Below, piece by piece: positions 1,690-51,493 of a stretch of DNA of 64,000 bases. Every line of letters begins with the position of its first letter. The first letter of the stretch is position 1. The notes beneath the pieces were generated by a model. The model was not told the origin of the DNA, ran no database searches, and saw nothing but the letters and a program-made list of their open reading frames with translations. A program made the translations under genes and the position numbers. The stretch lies in IMG/VR virus record IMGVR_UViG_3300048502_000133, positions 21,431-85,430 of that record; one strand, given 5' to 3'. The stretch comes from a virus. Taxonomy: Duplodnaviria; Caudoviricetes.

Positions 1690-2697
1690 TCACGATGCTA
1701 CAAGCTGATCCGCCAGCGAGAGTGCATCTACCGGCCAATACACGCGCGGGCGCGGCTGCAAAATACCGCGTAGACGCCCTCCGCCCCCAGGCTTACAATA
1801 CAGCACTACCCGGCGCCACTGGCCGGGCAAGGCATCCAGGCCATACAGTGCCCCGACCAGCGCGCCGCAGATAGCGCCGTTCGTGTCCGTATCGCCGCCG
1901 CTGCCTACGGTGCGCACCATCGCCTCTTCGCAGGTAGGCGCATGGAGCGCCTGGTAAAACGCGTTCTGCAGCGCCACCAGCACCCGCCCGCTGCTGGTGA
2001 CGAACGCCGGAGGCTCCGACCGCGCCGCTTCCAGGGCATGGGTCACTTCGCGGCTCCGCCCGTTTTTCTGGTCCCAGGCCCGCGCGACCGCGTAGGCACC
2101 CTCTGGGTCCAGCCCTTCGCGAATCACCGCCGCCAGCGCCACCAGATACGCCTTTGAGGCATCCTTGCAGACCTGATTCGGGTGGGTCATCGTGGTGTCC
2201 AGATCAACCCACAGCGCCAGCTGCCAGTCCGGGAGCCGGTGCCCCCAGATCGCCAGCGGGCTCTGCCGCATCAGCGCTCCGTTTGCCTGGCTGTCCGGAT
2301 TCGCGACCGCCCGCCCGGTACTCGCCAGCGGCGCGCCTCTGCGGCGTGCCTCCGCCATACCGCGCGTGGCGCGCCCGACCGTTCCGCCCACGTCGAAGGG
2401 CGCGCTTTCCAACCAGTCGGTATAGGCGCCCGCCACGTCCTCTTCATCGTACGCCCCACAGCGCACCAGCGACCGGGCCAGCGCCAGCGCCAGCTCAGAG
2501 TCATCGGTGGGCTGCCCCGCGATGGTCTGCCAGATCGGGCTGGGTCCGATGGTCCGAACGCCGCCGGGGAAGGCGTCCTCGATAGCCTCCGGCGGCATGA
2601 ACTCCACCTGGCTTCCCAGGGCATCGCCGGTCAACTGCCCCAGCAGGCACCCTGCGGCCCTGCTGCGCAGCGGCTCCGGTATGGTTCTCTTCTGCAT
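1690..2697 (-). CDS. draG: ADP-ribosylglycohydrolase (DraG/ARH family)
   Basis: GDALG, GQPTDDSELAL, NGALMR and GGDTDTNGAICGALVGA metal-binding motifs intact. Confidence 0.92.
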   Translation of the reverse strand: MQKRTIPEPLRSRAAGCLLGQLTGDALGSQVEFMPPEAIEDAFPGGVRTIGPSPIWQTIAGQPTDDSELALALARSLVRCGAYDEEDVAGAYTDWLESAPFDVGGTVGRATRGMAEARRRGAPLASTGRAVANPDSQANGALMRQSPLAIWGHRLPDWQLALWVDLDTTMTHPNQVCKDASKAYLVALAAVIREGLDPEGAYAVARAWDQKNGRSREVTHALEAARSEPPAFVTSSGRVLVALQNAFYQALHAPTCEEAMVRTVGSGGDTDTNGAICGALVGALYGLDALPGQWRRVVLYCKPGGGGRLRGILQPRPRVYWPVDALSLADQLVAS

Positions 2698-2700
2698 GGT

Positions 2701-3363
2701 CTACTCCAGTCTTCGATAGATATACAGTGCATCACGCATCCCCATATAGCGCGGGAGCCGGTGGATCTCCTCCGGCCCCCGCCGCCCTTCCTCCAGGTGC
2801 GCAAAAAACGCCTTCGTTCCGGTGCATCCTCCCTCACCTTCTCCTATGTAAATCAGCGTGTCGCCCTCATACGCCGCCAGCGCGTCGGCTGCCATTTCGG
2901 TATCGAACGGTGGCCAGCACAAAAACAGCGTGTGATCCTGGTGTCTCGACAGCACCTCATGGGAGCCCGTCAGTACCTCTGTCCAGTAGCGATAGGGGTT
3001 CCCGATTTTCAGTAATTCATTCCAGCTACCGTCATCGTAGGCGACCACCTCCACGCCCCGCGCCTCCAGCAGGGCTGCCCAGTACCCCAGGCCCGCGCCT
3101 ATCTCGACAATCGGCCCATGCTTCGCGATAAGCGAGAGCGCCCGTTCATCGGGGATTGCCCAGGAAAACGCCCGTACCAGCTGCTGGCGCGTGGCCCAGT
3201 CCACGTCATAGGTGCCCTCTCCGTAGTACGCCTGCAGGAAAGGAAAACGCGATCCGATGCCGGTGTAGGCTGCCTGCATGTGGCGTAGGTAGGGGTTAGC
3301 CTGTACGGCCCCCTTCAACCGGGCCAGCGTCTCCGCGATCGCCTCGATCTGGTCCTGCATCAC
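2701..3363 (-). CDS. Class I SAM-dependent methyltransferase-like protein
   Basis: IVEIGAGLGYW motif I, VVAYD, LFLCWPP. Confidence 0.7.
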   Translation of the reverse strand: MMQDQIEAIAETLARLKGAVQANPYLRHMQAAYTGIGSRFPFLQAYYGEGTYDVDWATRQQLVRAFSWAIPDERALSLIAKHGPIVEIGAGLGYWAALLEARGVEVVAYDDGSWNELLKIGNPYRYWTEVLTGSHEVLSRHQDHTLFLCWPPFDTEMAADALAAYEGDTLIYIGEGEGGCTGTKAFFAHLEEGRRGPEEIHRLPRYMGMRDALYIYRRLE

Positions 3364-4688: not shown

Positions 4689-5327
4689 TCAATTCCAGGC
4701 TGCCTGGTGCTCCAGCTTGCCGCGCGTGATGACCGTCTCCGCCACCCCGTTGTACATGCGGCAGTCCTTGACCGTCCCTGCCAGCAGCAGCACGTCCCCG
4801 ACCTGGGCGCTGGCCCGCGTGGCGAACCACACCAGGATCCGGCCCTGCTCATCCTTCATCTTCAGCATCGTGCTGACCCCGTACGAACCGTAAATCTCCT
4901 TCGCGATCAGGATTTCCACCTGGGTGATGATTTTCGATCCCACCGGCGCAACGTGCGTATTGGCGCTTGCCGGGAGCGCGGCGATCTGGGCCTGCTTGGC
5001 TGCCTGGCGTGCCAGGTACCGATCGTACGCGTTGACTGCGTTCGCCACGAAGGGCGCCTCATACGCCTTGCAGGTATCGCCCGCCACTGCCTGCACCATG
5101 CGCAGCGTGAACTCATCCCCGCTGGTGTACTGGGTACGCATCCAGCCGATCGCCGCCTGTGCCTTCGCTTCGTCTTCCTCTTCCGTCAGCGCCACGATGG
5201 CCATATCCACCGTTGACGTGATGCCCTGCTCCATCGCGGTCTTCTTGCTGACCCACCCGTACTGGCGAATCGCGGCGGCTACGCTGGTGGCGAACCCGAT
5301 AACGTTGATAGTGGCCTTGCTGCTCAT
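4689..5327 (-). CDS. Phage protein with C-terminal OB-fold-like nucleic-acid-binding domain
   Basis: C-terminal beta-rich segment (GSYGVSTMLKMKDEQGRILVWF..GDVLLLAGTVK..YNG..ETVITR); directly downstream of an operator-promoter. Confidence 0.6.
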   Translation of the reverse strand: MSSKATINVIGFATSVAAAIRQYGWVSKKTAMEQGITSTVDMAIVALTEEEDEAKAQAAIGWMRTQYTSGDEFTLRMVQAVAGDTCKAYEAPFVANAVNAYDRYLARQAAKQAQIAALPASANTHVAPVGSKIITQVEILIAKEIYGSYGVSTMLKMKDEQGRILVWFATRASAQVGDVLLLAGTVKDCRMYNGVAETVITRGKLEHQAAWN

Positions 5328-5368
5328 GGTCCCGACTCCTTCAGTGCTGCTCTCTTACCGACAAGAGT

Positions 5369-5397
5369 AGCATACCATACGTTGCAACGCGTGTCAA
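5369..5397 (-). promoter_or_regulatory. sigma70 promoter with CGTTGCAACG operator in spacer
   Basis: Minus strand TTGACA-cgCGTTGCAACGtatgg(17 nt)-TATGCT. Confidence 0.9.
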
Positions 5398-5603
5398 CCC
5401 CCATCTATCAAACTCCGCGCGTTTATCTCCTCCTGGAGCCGGTCTTTGAGTGTCTTCAGCGACTGCTGGGTACGGCGTACCGAACGGCGTAGATCCGCCG
5501 GGAGTTCGGAGACGCCTACGTTTTCGACCAGCTGCTGCGCGCGAGAGACAATCGAGAGCACGCGCCGGGTCTCCTTGAGCAATTGATCATCCTTGAGCGG
5601 CAT
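5394..5603 (-). CDS. Small hypothetical protein
   Basis: 69 aa ORF; its TGA stop lies inside the TTGACA -35 box of the next promoter. Confidence 0.55.
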   Translation of the reverse strand: MPLKDDQLLKETRRVLSIVSRAQQLVENVGVSELPADLRRSVRRTQQSLKTLKDRLQEEINARSLIDGG

Positions 5604-6699
5604 GTGGTCTTCCTAGCGCGTAATCTTTAGTGATCACACCGGCACTGGCGGCGCCGCGCAACGTAGGCGGCATGTAGAATCTGCCGGTGATCTTGCCGAA
5701 CAGCTTGCCGCGCCCGTTCGTGCCGTACTCGCGAAAATGCCCGCGCGCGGTGTGCAATCGTACCGTCCTGGTGGGTCCGCCCGCTTCTCCACGTACTGCC
5801 CGCACCTTGGGCGTTTTTAAGGGATCCAGCGTCAAGACTTTATACTCCGTCAGCGGGAGTTTTCCCATGATGCGCCGGGTCTTCTGCGCGCCTTCCGGCG
5901 CCGCGCGATCCTCCAGCAGGATGTTGTTGCAGTGCAGGAGCGAGAACGCCCAGAGCGACACGCACGCACAGTACGCACTCCCCAGCTGGTCCTTGCGGTA
6001 CAGCTCTTCCGCCCTCGCGCTTCCCCTTTTGGCAAGGCGATCCGCCTCCAGCAAGGCCATGATTTCCGGAGTTTCCACGAACGCACCCAGGCAGAGGTGC
6101 CCGTCTTCATCCAGCCAGAAGGACTGGCCTGCGGTGAGCCGGACAACATCATCACGTTTGTACTTGATAAACCCGCTGAGAGACATAAGCCACCGAAGAC
6201 GCGGTTCCTGGTGGTGGCGGAAGAACCACCGGGACGCCGCCGCCGCGCGATCTTCTTTTATGGTAGGCTCCATGATCTGAGAAAAGCGCTCCGGCGTCAT
6301 GCTGGCGATGCTGCGTATATCCTGGCACTCAATGAGCGCCGCTGCCCCCTCAATGGCTGGGTTTACCACCCCGTTCGCGGTGTAGACTCTATCCCACTCC
6401 ACCCACGTCAGCGGGTATGGAGGCACGAGTGAGCCGTAGCGCTCCGTAAAGAGGGTGGAGAACATCGTTTCATCGTTCAGATCTCCGGACACCCACTCCA
6501 GGGAGAGCCCGGTACTGAGGGTGTCGCTGGCGTAGTTGACCCGGAGCGCTGTTGCCCCGCGTATCACCTCCAGCACCATCTCTGCCTCTTTGTACGTGTG
6601 GAGCGCGTACGGGTTCTTCTTGAGCGCTTCGCGTGGGATGCGCTGATGCAAGAGCGTTTTCTTCCGGGCCATCTCCAGGTACTCATCTCGCAGGCTCAT
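5587..6699 (-). CDS. Hypothetical phage protein with basic H-x-x-RGH-x-R C-terminal motif
   Basis: Likely start MSLRDEY at 6699; C-terminus LHTARGHFREYG..FYMPPTLRG..GVITKDY resembles a recurring phage motif. Confidence 0.7.
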   Translation of the reverse strand: MSLRDEYLEMARKKTLLHQRIPREALKKNPYALHTYKEAEMVLEVIRGATALRVNYASDTLSTGLSLEWVSGDLNDETMFSTLFTERYGSLVPPYPLTWVEWDRVYTANGVVNPAIEGAAALIECQDIRSIASMTPERFSQIMEPTIKEDRAAAASRWFFRHHQEPRLRWLMSLSGFIKYKRDDVVRLTAGQSFWLDEDGHLCLGAFVETPEIMALLEADRLAKRGSARAEELYRKDQLGSAYCACVSLWAFSLLHCNNILLEDRAAPEGAQKTRRIMGKLPLTEYKVLTLDPLKTPKVRAVRGEAGGPTRTVRLHTARGHFREYGTNGRGKLFGKITGRFYMPPTLRGAASAGVITKDYALGRPHAAQG

Positions 6700-6998
6700 C
6701 CTCGCGATCCCCAGGGGAGACCGTCCGGCGCCCGCTGGGCGTCCCCGGCTGCCTCCATGCAATAGGTACAGACGAAGCCCGCCGGTACCCAGCCCTGCCC
6801 GTCTACCCAGGTCTCATCCTGCAGTTGAGGCAGCGGTAGGATCCGATCGCCGCAGCCCTTGCAGACCACGGCCTCTACCAGCAACCGGGCCTGGCAGACG
6901 GGACAGGCGATCGATCCCTCGATCGCCACGTCCACTACGGTCGCTGCCTGGCAGAAGTCGCACGAAGTAACGTAGGTACGAATCATCTGTTGTATCAC
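6696..6998 (-). CDS. Multi-CxxC zinc-finger protein
   Basis: Four CxxC pairs; GTG start overlaps upstream stop. Confidence 0.6.
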   Translation of the reverse strand: MIQQMIRTYVTSCDFCQAATVVDVAIEGSIACPVCQARLLVEAVVCKGCGDRILPLPQLQDETWVDGQGWVPAGFVCTYCMEAAGDAQRAPDGLPWGSRG

Positions 6999-7261
6999 GC
7001 CTGTACCCCCTTCTTCTCTGTCCCCGGCACTGCATGAATCCCCCACTGGATCGCCTTCACAACCGCCGCAGCGTGCTTGCAGACGTTGCCATGCTGGCCC
7101 GCCTGGCAATCGCAGGAGAGGTTCGTCCAGGAGCGCCCCGTTACCACGATGGTGTAGTCCTTGACCCGGTACTGCCCAGGACGCTCCTTGTAGACAATCA
7201 GCCTCTCCGCGACCGCGCGTTGCCAGGCTGCCTGCCACGTATTGACGATCTTCTCACTCAC
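6995..7261 (-). CDS. SWIM zinc-finger protein
   Basis: SCDC..(8)..CKHAAAV motif; first gene after an operator-promoter. Confidence 0.85.
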   Translation of the reverse strand: MSEKIVNTWQAAWQRAVAERLIVYKERPGQYRVKDYTIVVTGRSWTNLSCDCQAGQHGNVCKHAAAVVKAIQWGIHAVPGTEKKGVQA

Positions 7262-7297
7262 TGCCGTTCTCCTTAGTGGTCCCTGTCTCTACTAAGA

Positions 7298-7326
7298 AGA
7301 ATACCATACGTTGCAACGCGTGTCAA
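7298..7326 (-). promoter_or_regulatory. sigma70 promoter with CGTTGCAACG operator
   Basis: Minus strand TTGACA-cgCGTTGCAACGtatgg-TATTCT. Confidence 0.9.
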
Positions 7327-7332
7327 GGGGTA

Positions 7333-7533
7333 TCAGACAGATTCCGCAGGGACGCGCGGCGGCGGGCCTGGTTCGTTGCACTTGGCCCGGAGTCTGTCTA
7401 TCTCGACAAGCAGGCGCCGGACGCTGCTGATAGAGACGCGGGCCAGATCTTCTTCTTCAGGCGTGGCGTACTGCGCGATCGCCCGCATCATGTACTCCCA
7501 GTCAGCGTTCAGGCGACCGGGTATTACGTCCAT
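7333..7533 (-). CDS. Small hypothetical protein
   Basis: 66 aa ORF coupled to upstream gene. Confidence 0.5.
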   Translation of the reverse strand: MDVIPGRLNADWEYMMRAIAQYATPEEEDLARVSISSVRRLLVEIDRLRAKCNEPGPPPRVPAESV

Positions 7534-8096
7534 GGGTTGCCGCCCCTGGCGATGATCTCGTGTGCGTTCGGTACCGGGTAGCCCGGCTGCCCGCCCAGCT
7601 CAATTCTGGGGTAGGCGCTATACGGGCGTGCGTGCTCTTCGGTAACGATCTGGAAGTCTCCCCGCGCGCCTATCGTGCGGGTCAACAGCCCCGCCCAGAG
7701 GTGTGTAAGGATCGCCCAGGGCGTGTGGGGTTGATTGATCATGCCTGGGTTCCCCAGGTAGCGCTGGAAGTCTTCGGTAGTGAGTATCAAGCGCACGTCT
7801 ATATCACGCGGGTCGCGGCGCTTCAGTGCAGAACCCACCAGGAACGGGCGCGTGCCGTAGGCCATATGCACCCAGGCGCCGAACTCGTTGAGCGCCAGCC
7901 ACTGGGGCATCCCCACCCCGATCGGCTGCGGGTGCTGTCCCGTCGCGGTCTTCTCCCCTTGCTGAATATCCGCAAGGAAGAACGCCCCGCAGCTGGCGCA
8001 TACGTAGGTAGACGGCGTAGGGAAAGACGGTTCGCCCCATGCCTCCAGGCGAAGGTGCGCACAGGTGGCCAGTTTTGAGGCTTCAGGGTCTGCCAT
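7524..8096 (-). CDS. Pol-beta-superfamily nucleotidyltransferase with N-terminal zinc ribbon
   Basis: PFLVGSALKRRDPRDIDVRLIL (GS + DxD); N-terminal CAH..CASC. Confidence 0.75.
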   Translation of the reverse strand: MADPEASKLATCAHLRLEAWGEPSFPTPSTYVCASCGAFFLADIQQGEKTATGQHPQPIGVGMPQWLALNEFGAWVHMAYGTRPFLVGSALKRRDPRDIDVRLILTTEDFQRYLGNPGMINQPHTPWAILTHLWAGLLTRTIGARGDFQIVTEEHARPYSAYPRIELGGQPGYPVPNAHEIIARGGNPWT

Positions 8097-8106
8097 GGGT
8101 GCTCCT

Positions 8107-8625
8107 CTAGCTTTCTCGCGGCATGGGCACTTGCGCACCGCGCAGGGCCACGACGCGTGGATTAGTCGTTAACAGACGCAGCACACGCACGCGCGTCAGT
8201 GGGTGCAAAATGATCCGGGTGTGGTTTTTCTCGTACCACGCCGCTACTTCCCAGGCGCCGGTGATCGCCCGCCCAGCGCCCATCCAGTCAGCGACCATCT
8301 CTCGTACATAGCGCTCCGGCATCTTGAGCACAGCCGTTTCGCCGTTATCGTTCCGCAGGATCCAATGCTGCCAGTGGTGCTTATTGGCGTGCTGGTGATG
8401 GAGCCATGCCGCGTCGAAGTCCCGGCGCCGCTGCTCCAGGCGGGCGGCGTTCGTGGTCTTCTTGCCATAGAAGAAGGTCACGTACGGCCCCCACTCCGCA
8501 GGGGTGAGCTTTGACCAGTCGTGTAGCACCAGCCGCCACCAGGGGGCGCCCGTCGCCAGCCCTGCCAGGAAGACATAGTACTTGTGCCGCAGGATATACC
8601 GGGCATATTTCAGGTGCGCAATCAT
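8107..8625 (-). CDS. DUF5662-like HD-type metal-binding protein
   Basis: RHKYYVF..LHDWSKL..AWLHHQHANKHHWQHW..MPERYVREMVADWMGAG. Confidence 0.8.
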   Translation of the reverse strand: MIAHLKYARYILRHKYYVFLAGLATGAPWWRLVLHDWSKLTPAEWGPYVTFFYGKKTTNAARLEQRRRDFDAAWLHHQHANKHHWQHWILRNDNGETAVLKMPERYVREMVADWMGAGRAITGAWEVAAWYEKNHTRIILHPLTRVRVLRLLTTNPRVVALRGAQVPMPRES

Positions 8626-18587: not shown

Positions 18588-19106
18588 CTAGTAGTTCTTC
18601 ACGAGATGCACATGGCCCGACGCGCTCAGGTATGGGTAGAGCCCGCCCGGATCCGGGCCTGCGTAGACCAACACAGAGCCGCGCGTGTTGCTGGAAGCCG
18701 GTATCCCCTCGCCGGGCTCAAATTGAATCCGCCCGTACCAGAAGACCAGCGCGTCGGGCCAGATCCAGAGATCCTTGAACCACCGGGTATCGGTGCTTGA
18801 CGGTACCAGCAGGATCCCACGCTGGAAACTCCCGCGCTCATACTCCTGCCGGAAGCGGTCTACCCATTTCGAGAGGTGCGGCTGCGTGTAGGGCGGATTG
18901 GCGAAAACTGTTCGTGCAGGGGTACCCGGTGCAACGTGCCAGGGGGTCGTGAGCCCGTCTTCTACCGGCGTGTAGTGCCGCTGGGCCGGGATGCGCCGCC
19001 CCATATCCGCGCAGGGGTCCAGCTCAATGCCCCCCAGCGCACGAGAGATGACCTCTACCACGTCCAGCGGCGTGTACCATTGTGTGCGGTCTAGCTTATC
19101 GGACAT
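18588..19106 (-). CDS. Phage DNA N6-adenine methyltransferase
   Basis: QWYTP..IELDPCA..VFANPPY..W...F....ILLVPSSTDTRWF. Confidence 0.88.
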   Translation of the reverse strand: MSDKLDRTQWYTPLDVVEVISRALGGIELDPCADMGRRIPAQRHYTPVEDGLTTPWHVAPGTPARTVFANPPYTQPHLSKWVDRFRQEYERGSFQRGILLVPSSTDTRWFKDLWIWPDALVFWYGRIQFEPGEGIPASSNTRGSVLVYAGPDPGGLYPYLSASGHVHLVKNY

Positions 19107-19356
19107 CAAAGGGCGCCCCTACCAGAAAACCACGCAAGATGCGCAGCTGCCGATGCGCCCGATCGACACAGGCGCGGCGCAAGAATATCTCTATCTGGGT
19201 ATCGTCTGCGAACGCCGCCGCGCGCAGCAGCCCGTATTCCGCGTCAGTGAGTGAGAGCAAAATACGCGGCTCCCGGACAGGGAGACCTTTTTCTCGCTCA
19301 AGCTGGAGCGCGTCCAGCGCTGCACCGACGCGCGCCACCTTCTCTTCCGGCGTCAC
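19096..19356 (-). CDS. Small protein, possible ribbon-helix-helix
   Basis: RILLSLTDAEYGLLRAAA..IEIFLRRA; GTG coupled to upstream stop. Confidence 0.45.
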   Translation of the reverse strand: MTPEEKVARVGAALDALQLEREKGLPVREPRILLSLTDAEYGLLRAAAFADDTQIEIFLRRACVDRAHRQLRILRGFLVGAPFDVR

Positions 19357-24665: not shown

Positions 24666-25883
24666 GTGACCGCAATATCTACCCTTACAGCCGTACCGGC
24701 GCCCGCCACCACGCCAGCTCAGGTGATCCGCCAGGTTGAAAACGACCTGAACAGCGTACTGATCGAGCGTCAGCCCGTTGTCCGTCTTCTGCTGGCCTGT
24801 GCGGTCGCCGGGCAGCACCTCTGCCTGCTGGGGCAGCCCGGTACGGCGAAGACGTTTCTGGTAGACCAGTTCGCCCGCCGGGTGATTGACCCTGCCAACA
24901 CGCCGAACGTGATTCCGATGTTCGATGTGCTCATGAGCAAGTTCACCACGCCGGAAGAGATCTTCGGGCCGGTCAATGTCGCGGCGCTCAAGAACGGCGC
25001 CTACGAGCGGGTGATCGAAGGCTCCCTCCCGCAGGCCCGCTTCGCCCACCTGGACGAAGGCTGGAAAGCGAACAGCGCGATCATGAACAGCCTGCTGAAA
25101 CTGACCAACGAGCGCAAGTACAAGCATGGTACCCAGTGGCTGGACGCGCCGCTGCAAGCGCTGGTCATCAGTTCCAACGAGATGCCCCAGGAGGACAACC
25201 TGACGGCAATCTGGGATCGCATGGCGTGCCGCGTTGAAGTGCCCAAGCTGTCTCCGGCGGGGCGGCGCGAACTGAACTTCCGGTTCACGCGTCCCGGTGG
25301 CTGGCCGGTACCGGTGCCCCAGGCATACATCACCGTCCAGGAATTGGAGCAGGCCCGCGTTGACGCAAGTTTCCTGCCCGTCTCCGATCAGATTCTAGAC
25401 TCTGCCCTGGAGCTGATCGACGCGGTAGAGCAGAAGGGGGTGCGCGTCTCTGAGCGGCGCCAGGGCATCATGTGGGGCGTCGTCCGGGCTCACGCGTACA
25501 TCGAAGGGCGCCAGGAGGTAGAGCCTGAAGATCTCCAGATCCTGGAACACATTCTGTGGAACGACCTGGGCCAGCGGGTGGAAGTCAGCAAGGCGATCGC
25601 GGATTGTATCGGCAAGTTCGTTTCCGAAGGGAAGAACATTTCTGACTCGCTGGCGGAAGATATGCAGGTGTTCCTGACCAAGCTACCCAAGCTGGACAGC
25701 AAGCAGCGCAGTGTCGAGGCAGGGCTTATGAACGACAAGATCAAGATCGCGATGAAGGCGCTCAAGGCGCTCAAGAACACCGCGATTAACGAGGACCGTT
25801 CGTACGCGACACTGGATCGCTACCTGCAGGAAGCGCGCGGCTTCAACGCGCAAGTGGTCGCGGTCTTCAACGCTCCGGCGTGA
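24666..25883 (+). CDS. MoxR/RavA-family AAA+ ATPase
   Basis: GQPGTAKT Walker A, FTTPEEIFGP, HLDEGWKAN Walker B, ISSNE, WDR, RVSERR. Confidence 0.9.
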   Translation: MTAISTLTAVPAPATTPAQVIRQVENDLNSVLIERQPVVRLLLACAVAGQHLCLLGQPGTAKTFLVDQFARRVIDPANTPNVIPMFDVLMSKFTTPEEIFGPVNVAALKNGAYERVIEGSLPQARFAHLDEGWKANSAIMNSLLKLTNERKYKHGTQWLDAPLQALVISSNEMPQEDNLTAIWDRMACRVEVPKLSPAGRRELNFRFTRPGGWPVPVPQAYITVQELEQARVDASFLPVSDQILDSALELIDAVEQKGVRVSERRQGIMWGVVRAHAYIEGRQEVEPEDLQILEHILWNDLGQRVEVSKAIADCIGKFVSEGKNISDSLAEDMQVFLTKLPKLDSKQRSVEAGLMNDKIKIAMKALKALKNTAINEDRSYATLDRYLQEARGFNAQVVAVFNAPA

Positions 25884-25930
25884 ACGGTGCGAGAGGGGTG
25901 GGCTCTTACAAAGCGCGCCCCTCTGCCCTC

Positions 25931-25959
25931 TTGATAAGCGTTGCAACGTGTGTTATTCT
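25931..25959 (+). promoter_or_regulatory. sigma70 promoter with CGTTGCAACG operator
   Basis: TTGATA-agCGTTGCAACGtgtgt(17)-TATTCT. Confidence 0.88.
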
Positions 25960-25997
25960 CGCTGTAGGTAGTGTTTGCGAGTGGTGGAGGAAGAGAC

Positions 25998-27629
25998 GTG
26001 ACAGAGTTTTTCCGGCAAGTGCGCGACGGAAGCGCGGCAGTCAGTCACTCCGGCTGGGACGTGGCAAGCTATCAGGACGGGCTCCGGGAATTGCCGGGGC
26101 TGGCGGAGGCAATCGAACGCAGCACGCCGCTGCTGGAGACTGCCCCCGGTCTGTTCCGGGATGCCTACTGGCTGGCAAACCAGTGGGTAGACGCCCCCAA
26201 CGCGCAGATCGATCCGGTGGTACCGCTGCAGGGCGGGCATCGTTTGCATCCTGAACTCCTGCGGGAAATGGCCGGTACGACCGAATACCGCAAGCTGCGC
26301 GCCATGGGTACCGCGAATGACCCATTGCTTTCCGCGATCGCTGCCACCGGGCTGGCGGAGGGTATCATCCTGGCACTCCCTGAAAGCGCGAAGGAGAAGA
26401 TCAACCAGGCCCAGCAGCTGCAGGAGCAGTTAGGTCAGCTGCAGCAGGCGGCGAATACGCTCTCCAGCCAGGCTGAAGACCTGGAAGACCTGGCACAGCA
26501 GCTGGAGAACCTGGCACAGCAACAGCCCAGCCCGCAGCATCAGGAGCAGGCGGCAGACGCGGCGGCGGAAGCCTTCGCTGCGGCCCAGCAGGCGGCACAG
26601 GCCCAGCAGCAGGTTGGGGACATGCACGTTGCGATCCAGCAGGTTGCCCTTGAACCAGGCGAAGTGGACCAGACCAGACGCGGCGCCAAACAGGCACTGG
26701 CCCAGGCAGCAGGCGCTATCGAGGAGCTGCAGGAGGGGCAGGAGGCGTTCATGCCCTCCTGGGGGCGTACTGGCCCGGTAGGGGCGACTACCCGACAACC
26801 GGCGGAGGCGATCGCGCTGATGAAGCGCCTCTCCGCTGAACGGCACCTGGCACTGGTTGCGCGTGTTGCCGGGCGGCTCATCCCGTCTGTTCTCGCGGTC
26901 CAGAAGACCAAGATGGACCATAAAGCCGCAAGTATTACCGACATAACGCGCGGTCATGACCTGGAGCGCATGATCACCGGAGAGATGGCCCTGCTGACGG
27001 ATTCCGGGCTGGAAGACCAGTTCTGGGCGAAGTACTCCGATGACGGGCTGCTGCTCTACCAGCAGGAGGAGAAGGTACCCCAGGAACGCGGCCCCATCAT
27101 CGTGGCGATCGATGAGTCAGGCAGCATGGCGGCAGGTATCGGGGACGCGACCCGCCACGCCTGGGCGAAGGCGGCGGCGCTGTCGATTCTCGCGGTCGCC
27201 AGCCGCCAGAAGCGCTGGGTGCGCGTCCTGCTGTTTTCCGATAGCGGCGACCTCGACACGATGGACTTTGATCCACGCCCGAACGGCGATCCCGCGAAAC
27301 GCTGCACGACTGAGCGCCTGCTGGCGCTGGCTAGTCACGATTTTGGCGGCGGCACGTACTACGATGGCTGGATGGCCCGCGCGATTCGTACCGTCACGAA
27401 CGAGCAGCCGAAAGCCGATGTGATCCTCATCTCCGATGGGCTCTGCGGGGTTAGCGACGAAAACCTGAAGCGCTGGAGGAAGCAGCGGGCGGAAAAGGAG
27501 ATGCGGGCATACGCCATTCTCATCGGGTGTACCGATTACATGGGCACCCTGGGCAGGATCTGTGACTCTGTGATGACCCTTGAATCTATCACCCAGGACC
27601 AGGCAGTCCAGACACTCTCCGTAGTCTGA
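25998..27629 (+). CDS. VWA-domain protein (ViaA/CoxE-like) with Gln/Ala coiled-coil
   Basis: GPIIVAIDESGSM MIDAS, FGGGT, DVILISDG; GTG with GGAGG RBS. Confidence 0.9.
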   Translation: MTEFFRQVRDGSAAVSHSGWDVASYQDGLRELPGLAEAIERSTPLLETAPGLFRDAYWLANQWVDAPNAQIDPVVPLQGGHRLHPELLREMAGTTEYRKLRAMGTANDPLLSAIAATGLAEGIILALPESAKEKINQAQQLQEQLGQLQQAANTLSSQAEDLEDLAQQLENLAQQQPSPQHQEQAADAAAEAFAAAQQAAQAQQQVGDMHVAIQQVALEPGEVDQTRRGAKQALAQAAGAIEELQEGQEAFMPSWGRTGPVGATTRQPAEAIALMKRLSAERHLALVARVAGRLIPSVLAVQKTKMDHKAASITDITRGHDLERMITGEMALLTDSGLEDQFWAKYSDDGLLLYQQEEKVPQERGPIIVAIDESGSMAAGIGDATRHAWAKAAALSILAVASRQKRWVRVLLFSDSGDLDTMDFDPRPNGDPAKRCTTERLLALASHDFGGGTYYDGWMARAIRTVTNEQPKADVILISDGLCGVSDENLKRWRKQRAEKEMRAYAILIGCTDYMGTLGRICDSVMTLESITQDQAVQTLSVV

Positions 27630-27639
27630 TCGTTCACGC

Positions 27640-27679
27640 AGCCCCTGTGGCCCTGAAAAAGGCGCTACAGGGGCTTTTC
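27640..27679 (+). terminator. Probable intrinsic terminator
   Basis: AGCCCCTGTGGCC..GGCGCTACAGGGGCT stem followed by TTTT. Confidence 0.65.
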
Positions 27680-27703
27680 CCGTATACGCAGGAGAAAGGG
27701 ACC

Positions 27704-28015
27704 ATGGCCACCTTACAAATGCCCTCAGTGCCTAGAATGGTGCTTTACTACGCGTACGGCACGCCCCATGGGGAGTTCCCCGAAGGCGCTAGGCGCGCCG
27801 CGATTATCACCGAAATAGATGATCCTACCCGCATTGACACTCCCGTAGGGCTCTGTGTCTTGAACCCCACCGGCATGGCGTTTTTGCGTCATGTGCCCTA
27901 CGCCCGCTATCCCGGCGATCCCGGCCACTGGGACTGGCCCCCGTTTGTCGCCGGACTCTCCCTGCCCGATCCCGATCCGGTGGCCCCTGTGCATACGGAC
28001 TGGGGAGAGCTGTGA
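27704..28015 (+). CDS. Conserved small phage protein
   Basis: PSV.RMVLY..AAIITEI..VGLCVLNPTG..V.Y..PG.W.WP pattern common in phages; function unknown. Confidence 0.7.
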   Translation: MATLQMPSVPRMVLYYAYGTPHGEFPEGARRAAIITEIDDPTRIDTPVGLCVLNPTGMAFLRHVPYARYPGDPGHWDWPPFVAGLSLPDPDPVAPVHTDWGEL

Positions 28016-28335
28016 GCACCTACAGGCCCTTGGGTATGCTGATGGTCATGCACTTCTGCGCGCAGTGCGAGACAGGCAGCGCTACCTCCGCCCTGGAGAT
28101 AGCGCGGGCCGATGGGGCTGTGCAGTGCCTGCGGTGTAAAACCTGGAAGTCTGCTGATCCGTCCACGCTGAGAGAAATACAGAAATATCTCACTGAAGCG
28201 CGTCGGCAAGGGTTGACACACGTTGCAACGTATGATACCATTCCTGTAACGGAACCGCAGACACCGGAGGCAGTCCGGGACGGTCCGGGAGCACAGGAGG
28301 CAGCAGATGTTCAAGCCCACGATTACCCCAATTAG
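28012..28335 (+). CDS. Zinc-ribbon protein whose 3' part reads through the next promoter
   Basis: CAQC..CLRC; residues GLTHVATYDTI are encoded by the promoter-operator. Confidence 0.5.
   Translation: MSTYRPLGMLMVMHFCAQCETGSATSALEIARADGAVQCLRCKTWKSADPSTLREIQKYLTEARRQGLTHVATYDTIPVTEPQTPEAVRDGPGAQEAADVQAHDYPN
28213..28241 (+). promoter_or_regulatory. sigma70 promoter with CGTTGCAACG operator
   Basis: TTGACA-caCGTTGCAACGtatga(17)-TACCAT. Confidence 0.9.
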
Positions 28336-29395
28336 TACGGTCAAGGCACTGGCGGCGGGTCTGTCCGTTCTGCCGGATCCAGATGAGGAGGACGTGGTTT
28401 CTCCCGTTGCGGTGCCGGTCACTCCAGGCCCGGTCACCATGGCGACACTGGCCCACGCGACGGACGGGATTCCGCTCCTGGGGTACACCGTCTGGTGGTA
28501 TGTGCCCAGCAACGCCTGTGTCAAGCAGGACGCCTGGAACCAGGCGTGGAACGGGCGCGGGCTCCCCAAGATTCCGGCGAATCCCTGCACACCGCGCGCG
28601 GCGCTGCGGGCCGGTATCGAAGACTGGCTGGAAGATCGGGCGAAGGCGATGGGCTCTATCTACGGGCGGTACTCCACGAGTACCGAAGCCAGCCAGGTAA
28701 GCCTGATCCGGGTGATCAACTCCGCTGCCAGTCCGGAGACCGTCTTCGTCATCGTGATCGAACAGCGCGATCTGGCGAAGTACGGCCTGCAGCACGCGAC
28801 CGGGCTGCGGGTCTTCCTGAACAAGGAAGCAGGGACGATGTGGTGTACGGTCCAGGGGTCCGGCGGTGTTGAAGACGTGGTGCCGGAGCCCGCGATCGCG
28901 GCGGAGATTGCCCAGTATTGGGGTAAATACACGAACGCCCTGGTAGCGCGGGACGTGACCAACGCGCTGAATGAGGCACTGTCGCGCGTCGGCATGGTAC
29001 GCGTCAAGCGCGAAGGTGGGGTCTATTTTCTTCCCGCCAACTCCCGCCCGATAGCCGATGAACTCAACGAGTTTCTGGCTGCGGCGGTGCCTGGGGCGTA
29101 CATCTCGCTGCTGGGTGTCCCGGATGCAGGCGCGTCGAAAGTGGCTCTGATGCGCGGTGCTACAGACGGGCTTCTGGCAGAGATAAACGAAGAGGCGCGC
29201 GTGGTGGCCCGCTACGAGAGCGAGAAGGAGACGGTGCGCGTCAAGACCCTGGCGGGCGCGATGGGCCGGATCACGCAGCTGCGGGCGAAGGTCTCCGCTA
29301 CAGCGTCTCTCCTGGAAATGTCGAAAGACTCCCTGGAAGAGTCGCTAGGGACGCTGACGCGGCGCGTAGAAGACCTGATGCTGGATGAAGATTAA
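28307..29395 (+). CDS. DUF6744/DUF3150-like phage protein
   Basis: LGYTVWW..P..A...A..; GGVYFLPA; typical partner of phage AAA-VWA pairs. Family assignment from memory. Confidence 0.6.
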   Translation: MFKPTITPISTVKALAAGLSVLPDPDEEDVVSPVAVPVTPGPVTMATLAHATDGIPLLGYTVWWYVPSNACVKQDAWNQAWNGRGLPKIPANPCTPRAALRAGIEDWLEDRAKAMGSIYGRYSTSTEASQVSLIRVINSAASPETVFVIVIEQRDLAKYGLQHATGLRVFLNKEAGTMWCTVQGSGGVEDVVPEPAIAAEIAQYWGKYTNALVARDVTNALNEALSRVGMVRVKREGGVYFLPANSRPIADELNEFLAAAVPGAYISLLGVPDAGASKVALMRGATDGLLAEINEEARVVARYESEKETVRVKTLAGAMGRITQLRAKVSATASLLEMSKDSLEESLGTLTRRVEDLMLDED

Positions 29396-31806: not shown

Positions 31807-32519
31807 CGCGATCGATCTCCATTCCGCCGCCGCCGGACACGTCCCGGCTCCATGGAAAGGCGCTGGCAGCCTGGGTATGCTACCGCGACCTGGGCGCGTC
31901 GCGTACCCTGGAGGAGACCGCGACCACGCTGGGCTACGCCAGCCGCGACTCCATCAAGCGCTGGTACCGGGAATATAATTTTCCGGCAATGGCCCGCCAG
32001 TGGGACGCGCACCGGCAAGCGACACTGGACGCCGACGCGCTCAAGCACCAGCAGGAGCTTATCCGGGCACGCCGCGAAGAACGCCTCCAGATAGCGACCA
32101 GTTACCGGATGATGAGCCTGGCAACGCTCAAGCAGCACTACAGTGACGGTACACTGCCGCCCAATGTGGCCCTGGCAATGGCCCAGTTTGCCTCAAAAGA
32201 AGAACGGGCAGATCTGGGCGAACTGGAGACGCGCATCGGTCTGCAGGTGGAGGAGGAAACCGAAGTCCTGCACCAGCCCGCCGGTTCGCCTCTCGCGGCG
32301 CTGCGATCCCTGAGCCCGGAGAAGCGCCAGCTGCTCCTGGAACTCTTGCAGGAAGCCACCGGGTACCGTATGGATGAGGAGGAGGATCTGTTCGATGCAG
32401 CGTACCTAGAGGATGAAAGCGAACATGGAGACGAGCGTAGCGCCGTTCCTGGGCTGGGCCACTCCGGAGCTGCAAGCCGCATATCGGGCGGAACAGAGCC
32501 TCTATCGCTTCGTGCGTGA
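31803..32519 (+). CDS. terS: Terminase small subunit (probable)
   Basis: N-terminal HTH (YRDLGASRTLEETA..IKRW..W..RA..WD); lies immediately before terL. Confidence 0.7.
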   Translation: MTRSISIPPPPDTSRLHGKALAAWVCYRDLGASRTLEETATTLGYASRDSIKRWYREYNFPAMARQWDAHRQATLDADALKHQQELIRARREERLQIATSYRMMSLATLKQHYSDGTLPPNVALAMAQFASKEERADLGELETRIGLQVEEETEVLHQPAGSPLAALRSLSPEKRQLLLELLQEATGYRMDEEEDLFDAAYLEDESEHGDERSAVPGLGHSGAASRISGGTEPLSLRA

Positions 32520-34098
32520 AGCCTGGCATGTGCTGGAGCCCTCCACCCCCTTCGTGGACGGCTGGCATATCAAAGTCATCTGTGAGCACCTGGAAGCCGT
32601 TACGCATGGGAAGATCCACCGGCTGGTGATCAACATCCCGCCCCGGCACGCCAAGTCTCTGATCGTCGCGGTATTCTGGCCCTGCTGGGTGTGGACCCAG
32701 CAGCCCGGCACCCGCTGGTTGTTTGCCAGCTACGCGCAGACGCTCTCCATCCGCGACTCCCTCAAGTGCCGGAGACTGGTGCTCTCTCCCTGGTACCAGC
32801 GCTACTGGGGCGATCGGGTGAAACTCAGTAGCGACCAGAACGCAAAAGGGCGCTTTGAGAACACCGCGACCGGGTATAGACTCGCTACCAGCGTGGACGG
32901 CGTAGGGACGGGCGAAGGCGCGGATATTGTGGTCGCGGATGACCCGAACAACGCGACCGAAGCCGAATCCGACCTGATCCGATCGACGGTGAACCGCTGG
33001 TGGGATGAGGCTATGTCCTCCCGCCTGAATGACCCGGAGACCGGCTCCTTCGTGATCATCCAGCAGCGGGTACACCAGGAGGATTTATCCGGCCATGTGC
33101 TGGCAAAAGGCGACTATGAGCACCTGTGCCTGCCCGCAAGTTACGAGCCCGATCGGCCTGCAAAGACCATTCTAGGTGCCTACGATCGACGCACCGTTGC
33201 GGATCAGCCTCTCTGGCCGCAGCGTTTCACCCGCCGGTCTATCAACCGGCTGGCGCGCGCCATGGGACCGTACGCCGCCGCAGGGCAGCTCCAGCAGCGC
33301 CCGGCCCCGCGCGAAGGCGGTATTTTCCAGTACGACTGGTGGGGCACGTACACCCCCGCCAATCTCCAGATGGGGCGCTGCTCCCTGGTGCTGCAGGCGT
33401 GGGACACCGCCTTCAAAGAGGGCGCGGAGAATGATTATTCCGTCTGTGCGACCTGGGGCGTATTCCCGAACGGGTACTACCTCCTGGACCTGTTCCGGGA
33501 GAAAGTCAGTTTCCCGAAGTTAAAACGAGAGGCGATCGCCCAGCACGCCCGGTGGCGCCCGTCAGTGGTGCTGATCGAAGACAAAGCCTCCGGGCAGAGT
33601 TTACTCCAGGAACTCCGGGCCGATACGGTTATCCCGATTATTCCGGTCAAAGTAGGGCCGCACGAAGACAAGATCTCCCGCGCTACCAGCGTGTCCCCCA
33701 TTGTCGAATCCGGGAAATGCTACCTCCCCGAAGGAGCGCCATTTCTGGAGGCTTTCTTGAGCGAACATGGGAACTTCCCCAACGGCGCCCATAAAGACAT
33801 TGTGGACACCACCGTCATGGCCCTTCGCCGCCTGTCCTCCGGCGAAGTCGGCGTGGCGCTGGAAGAAGACGATGCCCTGCCTATGGAGGACGTGGCTGTG
33901 GACCCCTGGGGCAACCCGATAGAGGTGGATTCCGGAGTCCGGCGCCCCCTGATCAAGATGAGCCAGGAAGACCTGGAGGATCACGATCTTGGAAAGCTAC
34001 TCACCAGAGACCCGCACACCCACCGCACCGCGCCCACGCCCGTCAGTGTTCCTCCCTTTGGTCTTGACCTGTCTGGGGCGTTTTTTGATGACCTGTAA
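32413..34098 (+). CDS. terL: Terminase large subunit
   Basis: INIPPRHAKS Walker A, IVVADDP Walker B, IQQRVHQEDL, YAAAGQLQQRP, QAWDTAFK..DYS, IEDKASG, FPNGAHKDIVD. Confidence 0.97.
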   Translation: MKANMETSVAPFLGWATPELQAAYRAEQSLYRFVREAWHVLEPSTPFVDGWHIKVICEHLEAVTHGKIHRLVINIPPRHAKSLIVAVFWPCWVWTQQPGTRWLFASYAQTLSIRDSLKCRRLVLSPWYQRYWGDRVKLSSDQNAKGRFENTATGYRLATSVDGVGTGEGADIVVADDPNNATEAESDLIRSTVNRWWDEAMSSRLNDPETGSFVIIQQRVHQEDLSGHVLAKGDYEHLCLPASYEPDRPAKTILGAYDRRTVADQPLWPQRFTRRSINRLARAMGPYAAAGQLQQRPAPREGGIFQYDWWGTYTPANLQMGRCSLVLQAWDTAFKEGAENDYSVCATWGVFPNGYYLLDLFREKVSFPKLKREAIAQHARWRPSVVLIEDKASGQSLLQELRADTVIPIIPVKVGPHEDKISRATSVSPIVESGKCYLPEGAPFLEAFLSEHGNFPNGAHKDIVDTTVMALRRLSSGEVGVALEEDDALPMEDVAVDPWGNPIEVDSGVRRPLIKMSQEDLEDHDLGKLLTRDPHTHRTAPTPVSVPPFGLDLSGAFFDDL

Positions 34099-34109: not shown

Positions 34110-35708
34110 ATGCCCAACAACCATCCGCGCGAAACGGCCCCGCGCCAGGAATCGCTGGCAGAGTTCGCGCATACCGTCTCTGACAGCTCCGATCGCCTGG
34201 CGGTTCTGCTCAACGAAGCGCGTGCCCGCGTCTCCCAACGCCCCGATCCCGGTGACCCGCCCGACCGGCCCACTTCCCCGGATCGCGCCTCTGCGGTCAC
34301 CCGCACCACGTACCCGACCGGCGATCAGGGCGGCGATCCCCTGATGAAGTCCAGCTACCTCACGACTGACGTAAGCAACCGCGCCCGGAAGATCTCCCTG
34401 TATCAGGCGTTCCTGGGCGAATCCCCGGTGTCAGGGGCAATTGAAGCTATTGCCGCCCGGCTGGTCTCCGGCGGCTGGGTGCTAAAGCCCGTCGATGCGA
34501 AGCACCCCAACGAAGAGACCAGAGAACCCCTACAAGAACTCCTTGACTGGTGCAACCCGGACGAAGAGTTCGGGCAGATGCTCCACGACACCGCGACCGA
34601 TCTCCTGTGGGCAGGCGAAGCCTACTGGGAAATCACCAGCAAGTCCAGCGTCTACTGGGGGCGGAAAGTCCCGTACGAGCTATTTACGGTAGACCCGATC
34701 TCCATGGATTACGTGCTGGCCCCCAACCGCAAGCAAATAGCGGGCTACGTCCAGCAGGGCGAAGACGGGAAGCCCATCCCGCTCAAGCCCTCGCAGATCA
34801 TCCGCTGGTGGTTTCCGGACCCGCGCAACCGCTTCAAGGCGCTGTCTCCGCTGGAAAAGCTGCTCAACCCCGTGGTCACTGACACGTATTTACAGTTATC
34901 TGATCAGAAATACTTTCAGCAGGGGAACCGCTCCGGTACGGCAATTTTGTTGAAAAACGGCAATCAAGCCCTGGCGTCCCGCCTGCTGCGCTGGATCACT
35001 GAGCAATACCTGGGCGTCAAGAACGCGCACAAGCCGCTGATCCTGTTTGGTGAGCAATCGGACATGGACATACGCGACGTGCCCGACCACAGCTCCATAG
35101 ACGTGGTGGAGCGCCGCAAGTACTCCCGCGATGAAATCCTCTCCGGCTACAAAGTCCCGCCGCACCTGATGAGCGCCCTCGAAGGTACCGGGCAGGGTGG
35201 GCAGGCAGTGGGCGACACCATGGAGAAGCAGTTCGTGCATACGGCTGTGGACCCCATCCGCCAGCGCATCATGAGCAAGGCGACGTTCCGTATCTGTGTG
35301 CAGGGCTTTGGTATTGACGACTGGGTGATCGACACCACGTACGCCGATCTCCGCGACTCCGATAGAGTTCTGGAGAACATGAAGACCCGCATCTTTACCG
35401 GGCTCTCCACCATCAACCGGGAACTCGCGGAGCAAAAGCAGCCGTCCATCGAAGGCGGCGATATTCCCATTCTGGTGCTGGGCTCTACGATTGTCCGGGT
35501 AGATTCACTGCCCAACCTGCCCATGACGCCACCGGCGCCCGGCGGTGCCGCAGGGGCAGGTGGCGACGAAGACCCGACCGGCAGTGGGTTTACGGGAGAC
35601 CCGAAAGACGATCCCAGGGACAAGCAGGCCGCCGCCCAGAAGCCGAAAACGCCCGCAGACGCCAAGGGAACAACGGGTCACCCAACCGGCCCGGACCTCT
35701 CCGATTGA
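34110..35708 (+). CDS. Portal protein
   Basis: PN..EEFGQML..DLLWAGEAYWEI; LSPLE; RDEILSGYKVPP; TINRELAE..P.IEGGD. Confidence 0.92.
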   Translation: MPNNHPRETAPRQESLAEFAHTVSDSSDRLAVLLNEARARVSQRPDPGDPPDRPTSPDRASAVTRTTYPTGDQGGDPLMKSSYLTTDVSNRARKISLYQAFLGESPVSGAIEAIAARLVSGGWVLKPVDAKHPNEETREPLQELLDWCNPDEEFGQMLHDTATDLLWAGEAYWEITSKSSVYWGRKVPYELFTVDPISMDYVLAPNRKQIAGYVQQGEDGKPIPLKPSQIIRWWFPDPRNRFKALSPLEKLLNPVVTDTYLQLSDQKYFQQGNRSGTAILLKNGNQALASRLLRWITEQYLGVKNAHKPLILFGEQSDMDIRDVPDHSSIDVVERRKYSRDEILSGYKVPPHLMSALEGTGQGGQAVGDTMEKQFVHTAVDPIRQRIMSKATFRICVQGFGIDDWVIDTTYADLRDSDRVLENMKTRIFTGLSTINRELAEQKQPSIEGGDIPILVLGSTIVRVDSLPNLPMTPPAPGGAAGAGGDEDPTGSGFTGDPKDDPRDKQAAAQKPKTPADAKGTTGHPTGPDLSD

Positions 35709-46732: not shown

Positions 46733-46865
46733 GCGATCAGCGATTACGCGAACGCTATTGCACTGTGCCCGTGCCCGGTACGGGCCAGCGGCGCCCGTAC
46801 ATCCGGTGTACGGACCAGCGGCGCCCGGATCTACCCCGCCAACTAATACCCCCTCTGGAGGACCG

Positions 46866-51482: not shown

Positions 51483-51493
51483 AGGAGGCGAGA

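Follow-up and report, generated by a model that had tools for sequence, protein, structure and literature searches.

The window analysed here is a 64,000-nucleotide stretch of DNA from a virus of the Caudoviricetes (Duplodnaviria), comprising bases 21431-85430 of the 85,430-bp IMG/VR record IMGVR_UViG_3300048502_000133; its G+C content is ~63%, and the record is linear, with a CheckV completeness of 79%. At window position 1690-2697, on the minus strand, it encodes P0001, a DraG-like ADP-ribosylglycohydrolase (ARH) of 335 amino acids (aa) that is recognised by Pfam PF03747, by PHROG and by alignment to DraG. The same genome encodes two giant head-module proteins with ADP-ribosyltransferase (ART) domains, and we examined the proposal, made in an original prediction from the DNA letters alone, that the hydrolase could be an eraser for the phage's own transferases.

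In a gene layout derived from a GC3-guided gene call (GC3, the G+C content at third codon positions), every called gene from window position 21791 down to 1690 lies on the minus strand, forming a single leftward block with the ARH gene as its final member. The ARH gene is convergent with a plus-strand gene (781-1617), at the end of a block of packaging, head and tail genes that reaches the record end, resumes at the record start and stops at window position 1617. Between the gene end at 1617 and the ARH end at 1690 lies a hairpin (1641-1678) with a 16-bp stem, 12 G-C pairs and a T-run on the plus strand, which probably terminates both convergent transcription units. Its presence beyond the ARH gene and the uniform strand of the block confirmed that this is the last gene of a leftward operon, as originally claimed. 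The ARH frame begins with an ATG, has a GGAG upstream, stays open for 335 codons and shows a host-like GC3 of 0.80. Because its ATG lies 3 nt past the stop codon of an upstream methyltransferase-like gene (2701-3363, minus strand), the two are probably co-translated. The closest promoter-like site upstream on the same strand is a sigma-70-like sequence, TTGACA-17-TATGCT (10/12; 5369-5397, minus strand), and the ARH gene is probably the distal member of a ~3.7-kb unit of 5-6 genes headed by this promoter (5397-5369). Since the promoter is of host type, the leftward unit is plausibly expressed early.

The hydrolase is a well-preserved member of its family. Pfam PF03747 (ADP_ribosyl_GH) matched it with E 4.8e-59 and 200.8 bits (cut-off 26.2) over 285 of 287 profile positions, and the PHROG family 'ADP-ribosylglycohydrolase' with E 1.4e-34. 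Its closest solved relative is Rhodospirillum rubrum DraG (2woc, E 7e-28), followed in order by Azospirillum DraG, Thermus ARH, Listeria Lmo0067 (8za7_A), Tri1 (6dre) and ARH3, the last being a much weaker match than DraG (~1e-12 vs 7e-28). In the alignment, E32, D65/D66 and D102 correspond to DraG E28, D60/D61 and D97, the D97 position having been checked with the D97N mutant entry 2woe, and D269-T-D271-T272 corresponds to the DraG DxDT metal site (D243, D245, T246). Compared with the published list of DraG catalytic and metal residues (PMC8120803), the ARH retains the full set; its own catalytic and metal residues are E32, T64-D65-D66, D102, N139, H172, D269, D271 and T272, and the DraG-equivalent ones are invariant in a 43-member alignment of its clade. 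The intact active site on which the original prediction was built was located in both parts, with TDD at residues 64-66 (nt 2508-2500) and DTDT within GGDTDTNG at residues 267-274 (nt 1899-1876). From these residues, the ARH is predicted to be catalytically active as a mono-ADP-ribosyl hydrolase that depends on metal, like DraG and ARH1. Its greater similarity to DraG than to ARH3 suggests that the bond it cleaves is probably arginine-ADP-ribose.

We also considered whether the protein is an ortholog of a characterised hydrolase. It scored 134.6 bits against the DraG model TIGR02662 (cut-off 337.05), and the record holds no nif genes or adjacent DraT; against the Tri1 model NF041672 it scored 72.5 bits (cut-off 490), so that both assignments were rejected. 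The NF041672 match begins at profile position 65, and the N-terminal, toxin-occluding extension of Tri1-type proteins is absent from the ARH. No Macro or NADAR domain was found in the record, leaving the ARH as the sole recognisable ADP-ribose eraser in its 85 kb.

The first transferase domain lies within P0002, a protein of 1574 aa (46758-51482, plus strand; likely true start ATG 46863). ART domain 1 spans residues 881-1135 (49398-50162) and carries the expected motifs, with R in LARG (nt 49809-49817), S in PLASW (49941-49952) and ExE in YEVEY (50070-50081). The second lies within P0003, of 925 aa (51494-54271, plus strand), in which ART domain 2 spans residues 508-780 (53015-53833), with R648 in VARG (nt 53432-53440), S689/S690 in PLSSF (53552-53563) and E750xE752 in GESEV (53741-53752). 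The ART regions of P0002 and P0003 are paralogous (24% identity over 267 columns, E 4e-9). Neither protein was assigned to any Pfam or PHROG family, the DRAT, ART-PolyVal and ExoTox models (PF07357, PF18760 and PF03496) gave no match on the record, and sequence searches of the PDB with the ART domain, as a single sequence and as a profile, returned no true match. Clusters annotated as penicillin amidase in the ESM Atlas, tried as relatives of the ART domain, were rejected at a best score of 0.84, under the useful range.

With P0003 residues 518-790 as the query, an exhaustive HMMER search recovered 311 relatives among 1.84 billion representatives, mostly within very large proteins, and 34 of these form the alignment A1. 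Within A1 a T-Q pair is invariant, an R-G pair closes a strand, S is nearly invariant in PLSSxS, and the ExE glutamates fall in G-x-G-C-L-x-E-x-E; across the 34 sequences the R and the second E are invariant and the S and first E reach at least 90% conservation, while the alignment contains no conserved stretch of 7-10 columns. The A1 profile matched domain 2 with E 4.6e-63 and domain 1 with E 7.1e-50 (2.7e-50 in a second search), and the Pfam DRAT model itself matches domains of this family in three homologs, two of which exceed its cut-off of 25 (P0134, 36.5 bits; P0137, 27.1; P0167, 18.1). A tblastn search of cultured phages with the ART domain gave a single partial match, in Bacillus phage HSE3, and the contigs of three short stand-alone homologs, at 0.9-2.4 kb, do not extend far enough to reveal a partner gene. 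One homolog, P0123 (7059 aa), contains 11 tandem ART-like copies of the A1 family, each with E 1e-50 to 1e-59; to our knowledge, no tandem array of transferase domains like this one has been described.

Structure prediction agreed with these assignments. The AlphaFold2 models of ART domains 2 and 1 had pLDDT values of 87 and 84.8, respectively, and in the model of domain 2 the R lies in strand 126-133, the S in strand 170-174, and the ExE opens strand 235-239. When the models were compared with 48,161 PDB representatives by VIA-align, which is independent of Foldseek, the top 21 matches of domain 1 were all ARTs (HopU1, Z 6.0; C2-I, 6.0; Tre1, 5.6), and the top 17 of domain 2 were nearly all R-S-E ARTs (TreX, Z 5.9; C2-I, 5.5; ART2.2, 5.5; Listeria ART, 5.3). 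Certhrax, iota-like toxin, VIP2, SpvB and ExoS were also among the matches. Since the Z values are modest (4.2-6.0 over 86-174 aligned residues), the structural evidence rests on the uniformity of the lists and on the motifs. Foldseek against the PDB gave no significant row, with ARTs enriched at E 0.02-0.3. Sequence profile and modelled fold together indicate that both domains are genuine R-S-ExE transferases of a DraT-like kind, and that both are probably catalytically active. The presence of two ExE ART domains, as stated in the original prediction, was thus supported by profile, motif and fold alike, though no Pfam ART model matches them directly.

Both ART genes are found in the head-morphogenesis module. 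They lie downstream of the genes for the terminase large subunit (32413-34098, plus strand; PF17289, E 1.4e-14) and portal (34110-35708, plus strand; PF04860, E 7.7e-24), which mark this module, and immediately before a putative prohead protease or scaffold gene (54296-55846, plus strand), which follows directly 3' of the second ART gene and has a weak Peptidase_S77 match (PF03420, E 3.4e-4, under the cut-off). In addition, a cargo-like protein of 398 aa with a zeta-toxin kinase domain (45343-46539, plus strand; PF06414, E 7.2e-10) has an N-terminal domain of ~40 aa in common with both ART proteins. This domain, aligned without gaps as alignment A3, follows the pattern W-[VI]-T-L..S....THV.....G.I..GP..L.G.NI.HLPA.P, and its stretches in the ART genes are at window 46863-47000 and 51494-51630. 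We regard it as a candidate module for targeting proteins to the capsid. Pfam and PHROG detected no MuF domain in P0002 or P0003, and no small open reading frame occurs between or directly after the ART genes.

The closest homologs of the ART proteins, P0124 and P0125, are encoded on an 11-kb contig by adjacent giant genes that immediately follow those for terminase and portal, so that at least one other phage has kept the head-module layout with two ARTs. The 11.4-kb Logan contig L020 (1492-11099) encodes a terminase, a portal fused to a 2',5'-RNA-ligase (2H) domain, and two neighbouring giant proteins of 1114 and 881 aa that both end in the A1 ART family, a layout as in this phage. Phage ARTs of the head module have been analysed in published work (PMC9503650), and, judged by these analyses and by gene position, the ART proteins described here are probably packaged in the capsid.

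Capsid-packaged phage ADP-ribosyltransferases are a widespread takeover weapon. For the survival of the producing cell and the late programme under such enzymes, we know of a single experimental case, Bxa/BAH. In this system, Bxa, a head-module toxin of the Bacteroides stercoris prophage PhiBxa, kills bacteria and modifies arginines by ADP-ribosylation (Alexei et al., J Biol Chem 2024; PMC11699363). The hydrolase BAH, itself an ARH, rescues cells purely by erasing the marks made by Bxa and does not co-purify with the toxin (PMC11699363). As in Bxa/BAH, the locus described here combines toxin-like genes in the head-morphogenesis module with a phage-encoded hydrolase of the ARH fold, BAH neutralising its toxin enzymatically and without stable binding. 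Unlike in Bxa, where the ART is fused to MuF and both BAH and Bsi are encoded alongside, no MuF domain was detected here and there is no small immunity gene next to the ARTs, which instead belong to a DraT-like family without Pfam coverage, occur as two paralogs accompanied by a zeta-kinase cargo protein, and have the 40-aa N-terminus in common. Unlike BAH, the ARH is separated from the ARTs by ~47 kb, belongs to a different transcription unit and has a cellular origin of the Chloroflexota type. The locus is most likely an unlinked version of the toxin-antidote arrangement known experimentally from this other phage, and the original prediction had accordingly rated its novelty too high, the arrangement being a variant of one already described.

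We therefore favour, tentatively and at a little short of even confidence, the reading in which the ARH is an in-trans enzymatic antidote, or eraser, for the two virion-destined ARTs of the same phage, and may in addition reset marks made at entry. It is supported by the ARH being the sole eraser in the record, by the match of a DraT-like writer with a DraG-like eraser, by the recurrence of the pairing in unrelated phages and by the precedent of Bxa and BAH. The phage acquired a stand-alone hydrolase from a cellular clade of the Chloroflexota type, which a host-type promoter would express as the last gene of the leftward unit. The two ART proteins would be produced alongside the head proteins and would enter the capsid by way of their common N-terminal domain; as they accumulate in the producing cell, the ARH would strip their arginine marks, as BAH does for Bxa. 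It could also remove marks laid down at entry. The enzyme families, the intact active sites of both partners, the gene positions, the source of the ARH and the recurrent pairing are all seen in the data; from these we infer the specificity for arginine, the packaging into virions and the functional link between the ARH and the ARTs.

Other characterised systems show similar logic. As in DraT/DraG (2woc, 3g9d), the E-D-D and DxDT residues are kept in the ARH, some members of the ART family are recognised by the Pfam DraT model, and both systems would follow an arginine writer-eraser logic; unlike in DraT/DraG, the hydrolase is not an ortholog, nif genes are lacking around it, the two partners lie apart and the setting is a phage. 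Tre1/Tri1 of the Serratia type VI secretion system (6dre, 6drh) and the Listeria ART-ARH pair (8za7) likewise combine an R-S-E ART toxin with a DraG-like hydrolase, and both halves of each were among the sequence or fold matches obtained here. In contrast to the situation in this phage, however, the immunity proteins of Serratia and Listeria also bind and occlude the toxin and are encoded beside it. A prediction of a complex between ART domain 2 and the ARH returned a score of 0.00, but controls were not run and the result is not evidence either way.

The co-occurrence of ARH and ART genes across phages, which the original prediction had proposed as a check, was found to recur but not to be general. 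An ARH together with a head-module or Alt-like ART was found in three other unrelated phage lineages. In the first, the same Streptomyces phages (11/11) carry both an ARH and the head-module ART gp9, a protein of ~1200 aa encoded after the portal and a capsid-morphogenesis gene, with a C-terminal ART of the ExoTox type (PF03496, E 1.3e-21 in Crosby). In Crosby (MH536815.1), gp9 (4849-8436) and the ARH gp78 (51305-52273; loci L187 and L188) are near opposite genome ends. The gp9 proteins, which are unannotated or annotated 'ADP-ribosyltransferase', carry ARTs that have diverged to 39% identity, and the ARHs are annotated 'hydrolase'. In the second lineage, the IMG/VR phage G014 (50.2 kb, terminal repeats, 73% G+C), the ARH belongs to the same clade as the window ARH and is 47% identical to it, and a PF03496 ART of 929 aa lies beside head genes, 23 kb from the ARH; G014 and this phage have no structural genes in common. 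In the third, the T4-like Citrobacter phage Ci1 (OR515478.1, 164438-167462; L195), the ARH, annotated hypothetical, and an Alt-like ART of 693 aa (PF03496, E 1e-15) are neighbours in divergent orientation, next to dda.

Closer relatives of the phage itself contributed little to this comparison. Megablast found nothing similar to the first 6 kb among 50,697 phage records, an IMG/VR pattern scan based on the ARH sequence alone was likewise empty, and related phages could be reached via the terminase alone, at 36-55% identity. Five such terminase-related records had neither an ARH nor the A1 ART family and were uninformative.

To place the hydrolase itself, we turned to its cellular relatives. 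Cultured phages hold no close copy, the best being 33% identical (Streptomyces phages and jumbo phages). In a set of 5.8 billion proteins, by contrast, the nearest relatives are 55-63% identical, and the named ones derive from Chloroflexota metagenome-assembled genomes (MAGs), several on contigs of 0.3-2.6 Mb. Among GTDB species genomes, the nine top loci were all from Chloroflexota or unclassified MAGs, with many other phyla at 45-50%. A quick maximum-likelihood tree placed the phage ARH in a clade with an SH-aLRT support of 100, together with nine cellular proteins (seven named as Chloroflexota, two unclassified) and one viral protein on a long branch. The phage ARH has all 53 clade-invariant positions, and the C-terminal extension of the clade (ARH residues ~296-335) keeps C301, P315-R316-P317 and W321. 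The clade is patchy, being found in 21 of 401 sampled Chloroflexota genomes (E 1e-60 or better), and is spread across phyla at 45-60% identity. A conserved operon was sought for its cellular members and rejected, as the commonest neighbour family occurs in only 6 of 80 loci, and three contexts inspected by hand were unrelated. On this sequence evidence the phage ARH is a captured accessory, partner-less cellular hydrolase of the Chloroflexota type, and the host of the phage, judged from the ARH gene alone, is probably a member of the Chloroflexota.

Such an origin raises the question of whether the gene serves the phage at all. That it is a passenger, a host gene recently acquired at the operon end with no adaptive role, would be in keeping with its 55-63% identity to cellular genes and its terminal position in the unit; the intact frame, the 53 clade-invariant residues, the GC3 of 0.80, its own ribosome-binding site and the tight coupling to the upstream gene nevertheless make this scarcely credible, and an identity of ~60% further implies that the capture was not very recent. 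The cellular clade also bears on what the enzyme cleaves. Several of its members (P0020, P0025, P0037, P0078 and P0098) are fused to an inositol-monophosphatase-family domain (PF00459), which hints that a phosphorylated sugar or nucleotide could form part of the substrate on which the clade natively acts. If the phage ARH likewise acted on a soluble ADP-ribose derivative, such as O-acetyl-ADP-ribose, an immune-signal conjugate or a by-product of NAD turnover, these fusions and the activity of ARH3-type members on O-acetyl-ADP-ribose (PMC8120803) would be accounted for. We consider a small-molecule role very unlikely, given that the best matches are arginine-specific (DraG 7e-28 vs ARH3 ~1e-12) and that, among the families searched, the record has no NAD-salvage, Nudix-type or signal-related partner.

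The partner-less nature of the clade additionally recalls the writer-less 'ARG-centric' systems, which Iyer et al. (Viruses 2022, PMC9503650) predict to be cellular ARH systems that counter viral ARTs. Like these, the parent clade lacks a partner, is patchy and widely transferred, and sometimes carries a phosphatase-type fusion; unlike them, its members are surrounded by no Nudix or WYL regulator or conserved operon, and here the phage itself carries ARTs. By extension, the cellular clade might undo the marks of injected phage ARTs, and the phage copy might erase the marks of superinfecting rivals, including kin, as a form of superinfection exclusion. A patchy (21/401), widespread clade without conserved neighbours would fit an accessory conflict gene, and the phage ARH retains all clade-invariant residues. 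This nonetheless seems quite unlikely to us, being pure inference with no experimental precedent, and because the phage's own injected ARTs would also be blunted unless timing separated the two.

Returning to the antidote reading, several of our observations weigh against it. The ARH is ~47-50 kb from the ART genes, on the opposite strand and under a different promoter, whereas the partners are adjacent in Bxa/BAH, DraT/DraG, Tre1/Tri1 and Ci1. Its closest relatives are cellular genes with neither a partner nor a conserved neighbourhood, and the A1 ART family occurs in none of the 401 sampled Chloroflexota genomes, so that the ARH has not co-evolved with these ARTs. Because the 11 Streptomyces phages belong to a single phage cluster, they count as one event. 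The 35 ARH-bearing IMG/VR records that could be searched include none with the A1 family and 3 with PF03496, leaving 32 with neither of the two ART families for which this count was made; many ARH-bearing viral records are fragments or probable host flanks, with ARHs placed beside near-identical cellular genes in the tree. Five of five ARH-bearing jumbo phages lacked PF03496, and 13 Mycobacterium phages with VIP2-like ARTs were absent from the list of ARH matches. Furthermore, the record is incomplete, at 79%. This mixed distribution indicates that the association of ARH and ART is recurrent, not obligatory. Overall, the idea of an eraser for the phage's own ARTs was strengthened in its self-protection part by the recurrent pairing and the BAH precedent, and weakened by the ~47 kb separating the genes and by a pairing that is not general.

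The same distribution would be compatible with a counter-defence function, the alternative named in the original prediction. The ARH would then act as an 'orphan antitoxin', erasing the marks of a host ART defence from phage or host molecules independently of the phage's own ARTs, and the prevalence of ARH-bearing viral records without the tested ART families, the recent capture of the ARH from cells and its place in a host-promoter unit separate from the ARTs would all fit. There are also precedents. The phage NADAR protein AdfN, co-opted from cells, erases DarT1 marks (PMC11825919), and the ARH-fold protein DarG3 is the antitoxin of DarHTG (PMC13069673). AdfN resembles the present case in that a phage has co-opted a cellular ADP-ribose eraser, but it has another fold and removes marks that a host toxin places on DNA (PMC11825919). 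The closest solved and curated relatives of the ARH target protein arginine, not DNA. Moreover, we know of no ART-based defence in the presumed host group and identified none, and counter-defence would not explain why, in four phage lineages, an ARH is accompanied by a head-module or Alt-like ART. We thus hold it to be possible but doubtful, and retain the antidote reading as the preferred one.

A more elaborate form of writer-eraser pairing, akin to the timed switch of the original prediction, would make the marks part of a reversible cycle, in which the two capsid-borne ARTs and the zeta-type kinase mark host proteins at entry and the ARH later erases these marks, or those of rivals, when the targets are needed again. 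T4 Alt is a capsid-packaged, injected ART, and we know of no eraser for Alt marks in T4. As with Alt, the ARTs of this phage would be made with the head proteins and delivered with the DNA. Transcription of the ARH would fall to the unmodified host polymerase, acting on a separate promoter regulon. We regard such a cycle as unlikely; if true, it would amount to a timer whose writers are virion cargo and whose eraser is an expressed gene, this eraser being a stolen copy of a host anti-ART enzyme.

Around these genes, further features of the window were recorded. The gene immediately upstream of the ARH (2701-3363, minus strand) encodes a protein of 220 aa resembling class I S-adenosylmethionine (SAM)-dependent methyltransferases (phrog_19090, E 3.5e-41; Methyltransf_23, weak). 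Its homologs are annotated as SAM methyltransferases in haloarchaeal viruses and jumbo phages, and its best phage relatives are in haloarchaeal viruses, at 40-43% identity. It is one of two methyltransferases in the leftward block, the other being a Dam-type N6-adenine methyltransferase (18588-19109, minus strand; PF05869, E 4.5e-15). The same block contains, at window 7524-8625 (minus strand), a DUF5662 protein (E 3.1e-41) beside a protein of 204 aa without a family match, which an earlier reader had labelled as an HD hydrolase and a nucleotidyltransferase. Across the hairpin, the 781-1617 gene that ends the late plus-strand block encodes a protein with weak similarity to papain-type peptidases (Peptidase_C1, E 1.3e-4; PHROG peptidase, E 3.8e-3), which could be a lysis or virion-associated peptidase. 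On the plus strand at window 24666-29395, a cassette of a MoxR-type AAA+ protein (PF20030, E 6.5e-44), a vWA protein and a DUF6744-like protein is unusual for a phage.

Finally, what sets this locus apart is an eraser that is unlinked and under separate control, an ART family outside Pfam, a private N-terminal module in place of MuF in two ARTs and a kinase, and a probable Chloroflexota host. A catalogue published in 2022 already covers ARHs and ART-ARH pairs of phages (PMC9503650). The locus extends the logic of Bxa and BAH to a DraT-like family of 311 representatives, with up to 11 tandem copies in one protein. Since the unlinked pairing also occurs in cultured Streptomyces phages, between the gp9 ART and the gp78 'hydrolase', the idea can be tested directly in a tractable system. 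In addition, unlinked immunity genes of this kind would escape screens for toxin-immunity pairs that rely on gene neighbourhood.

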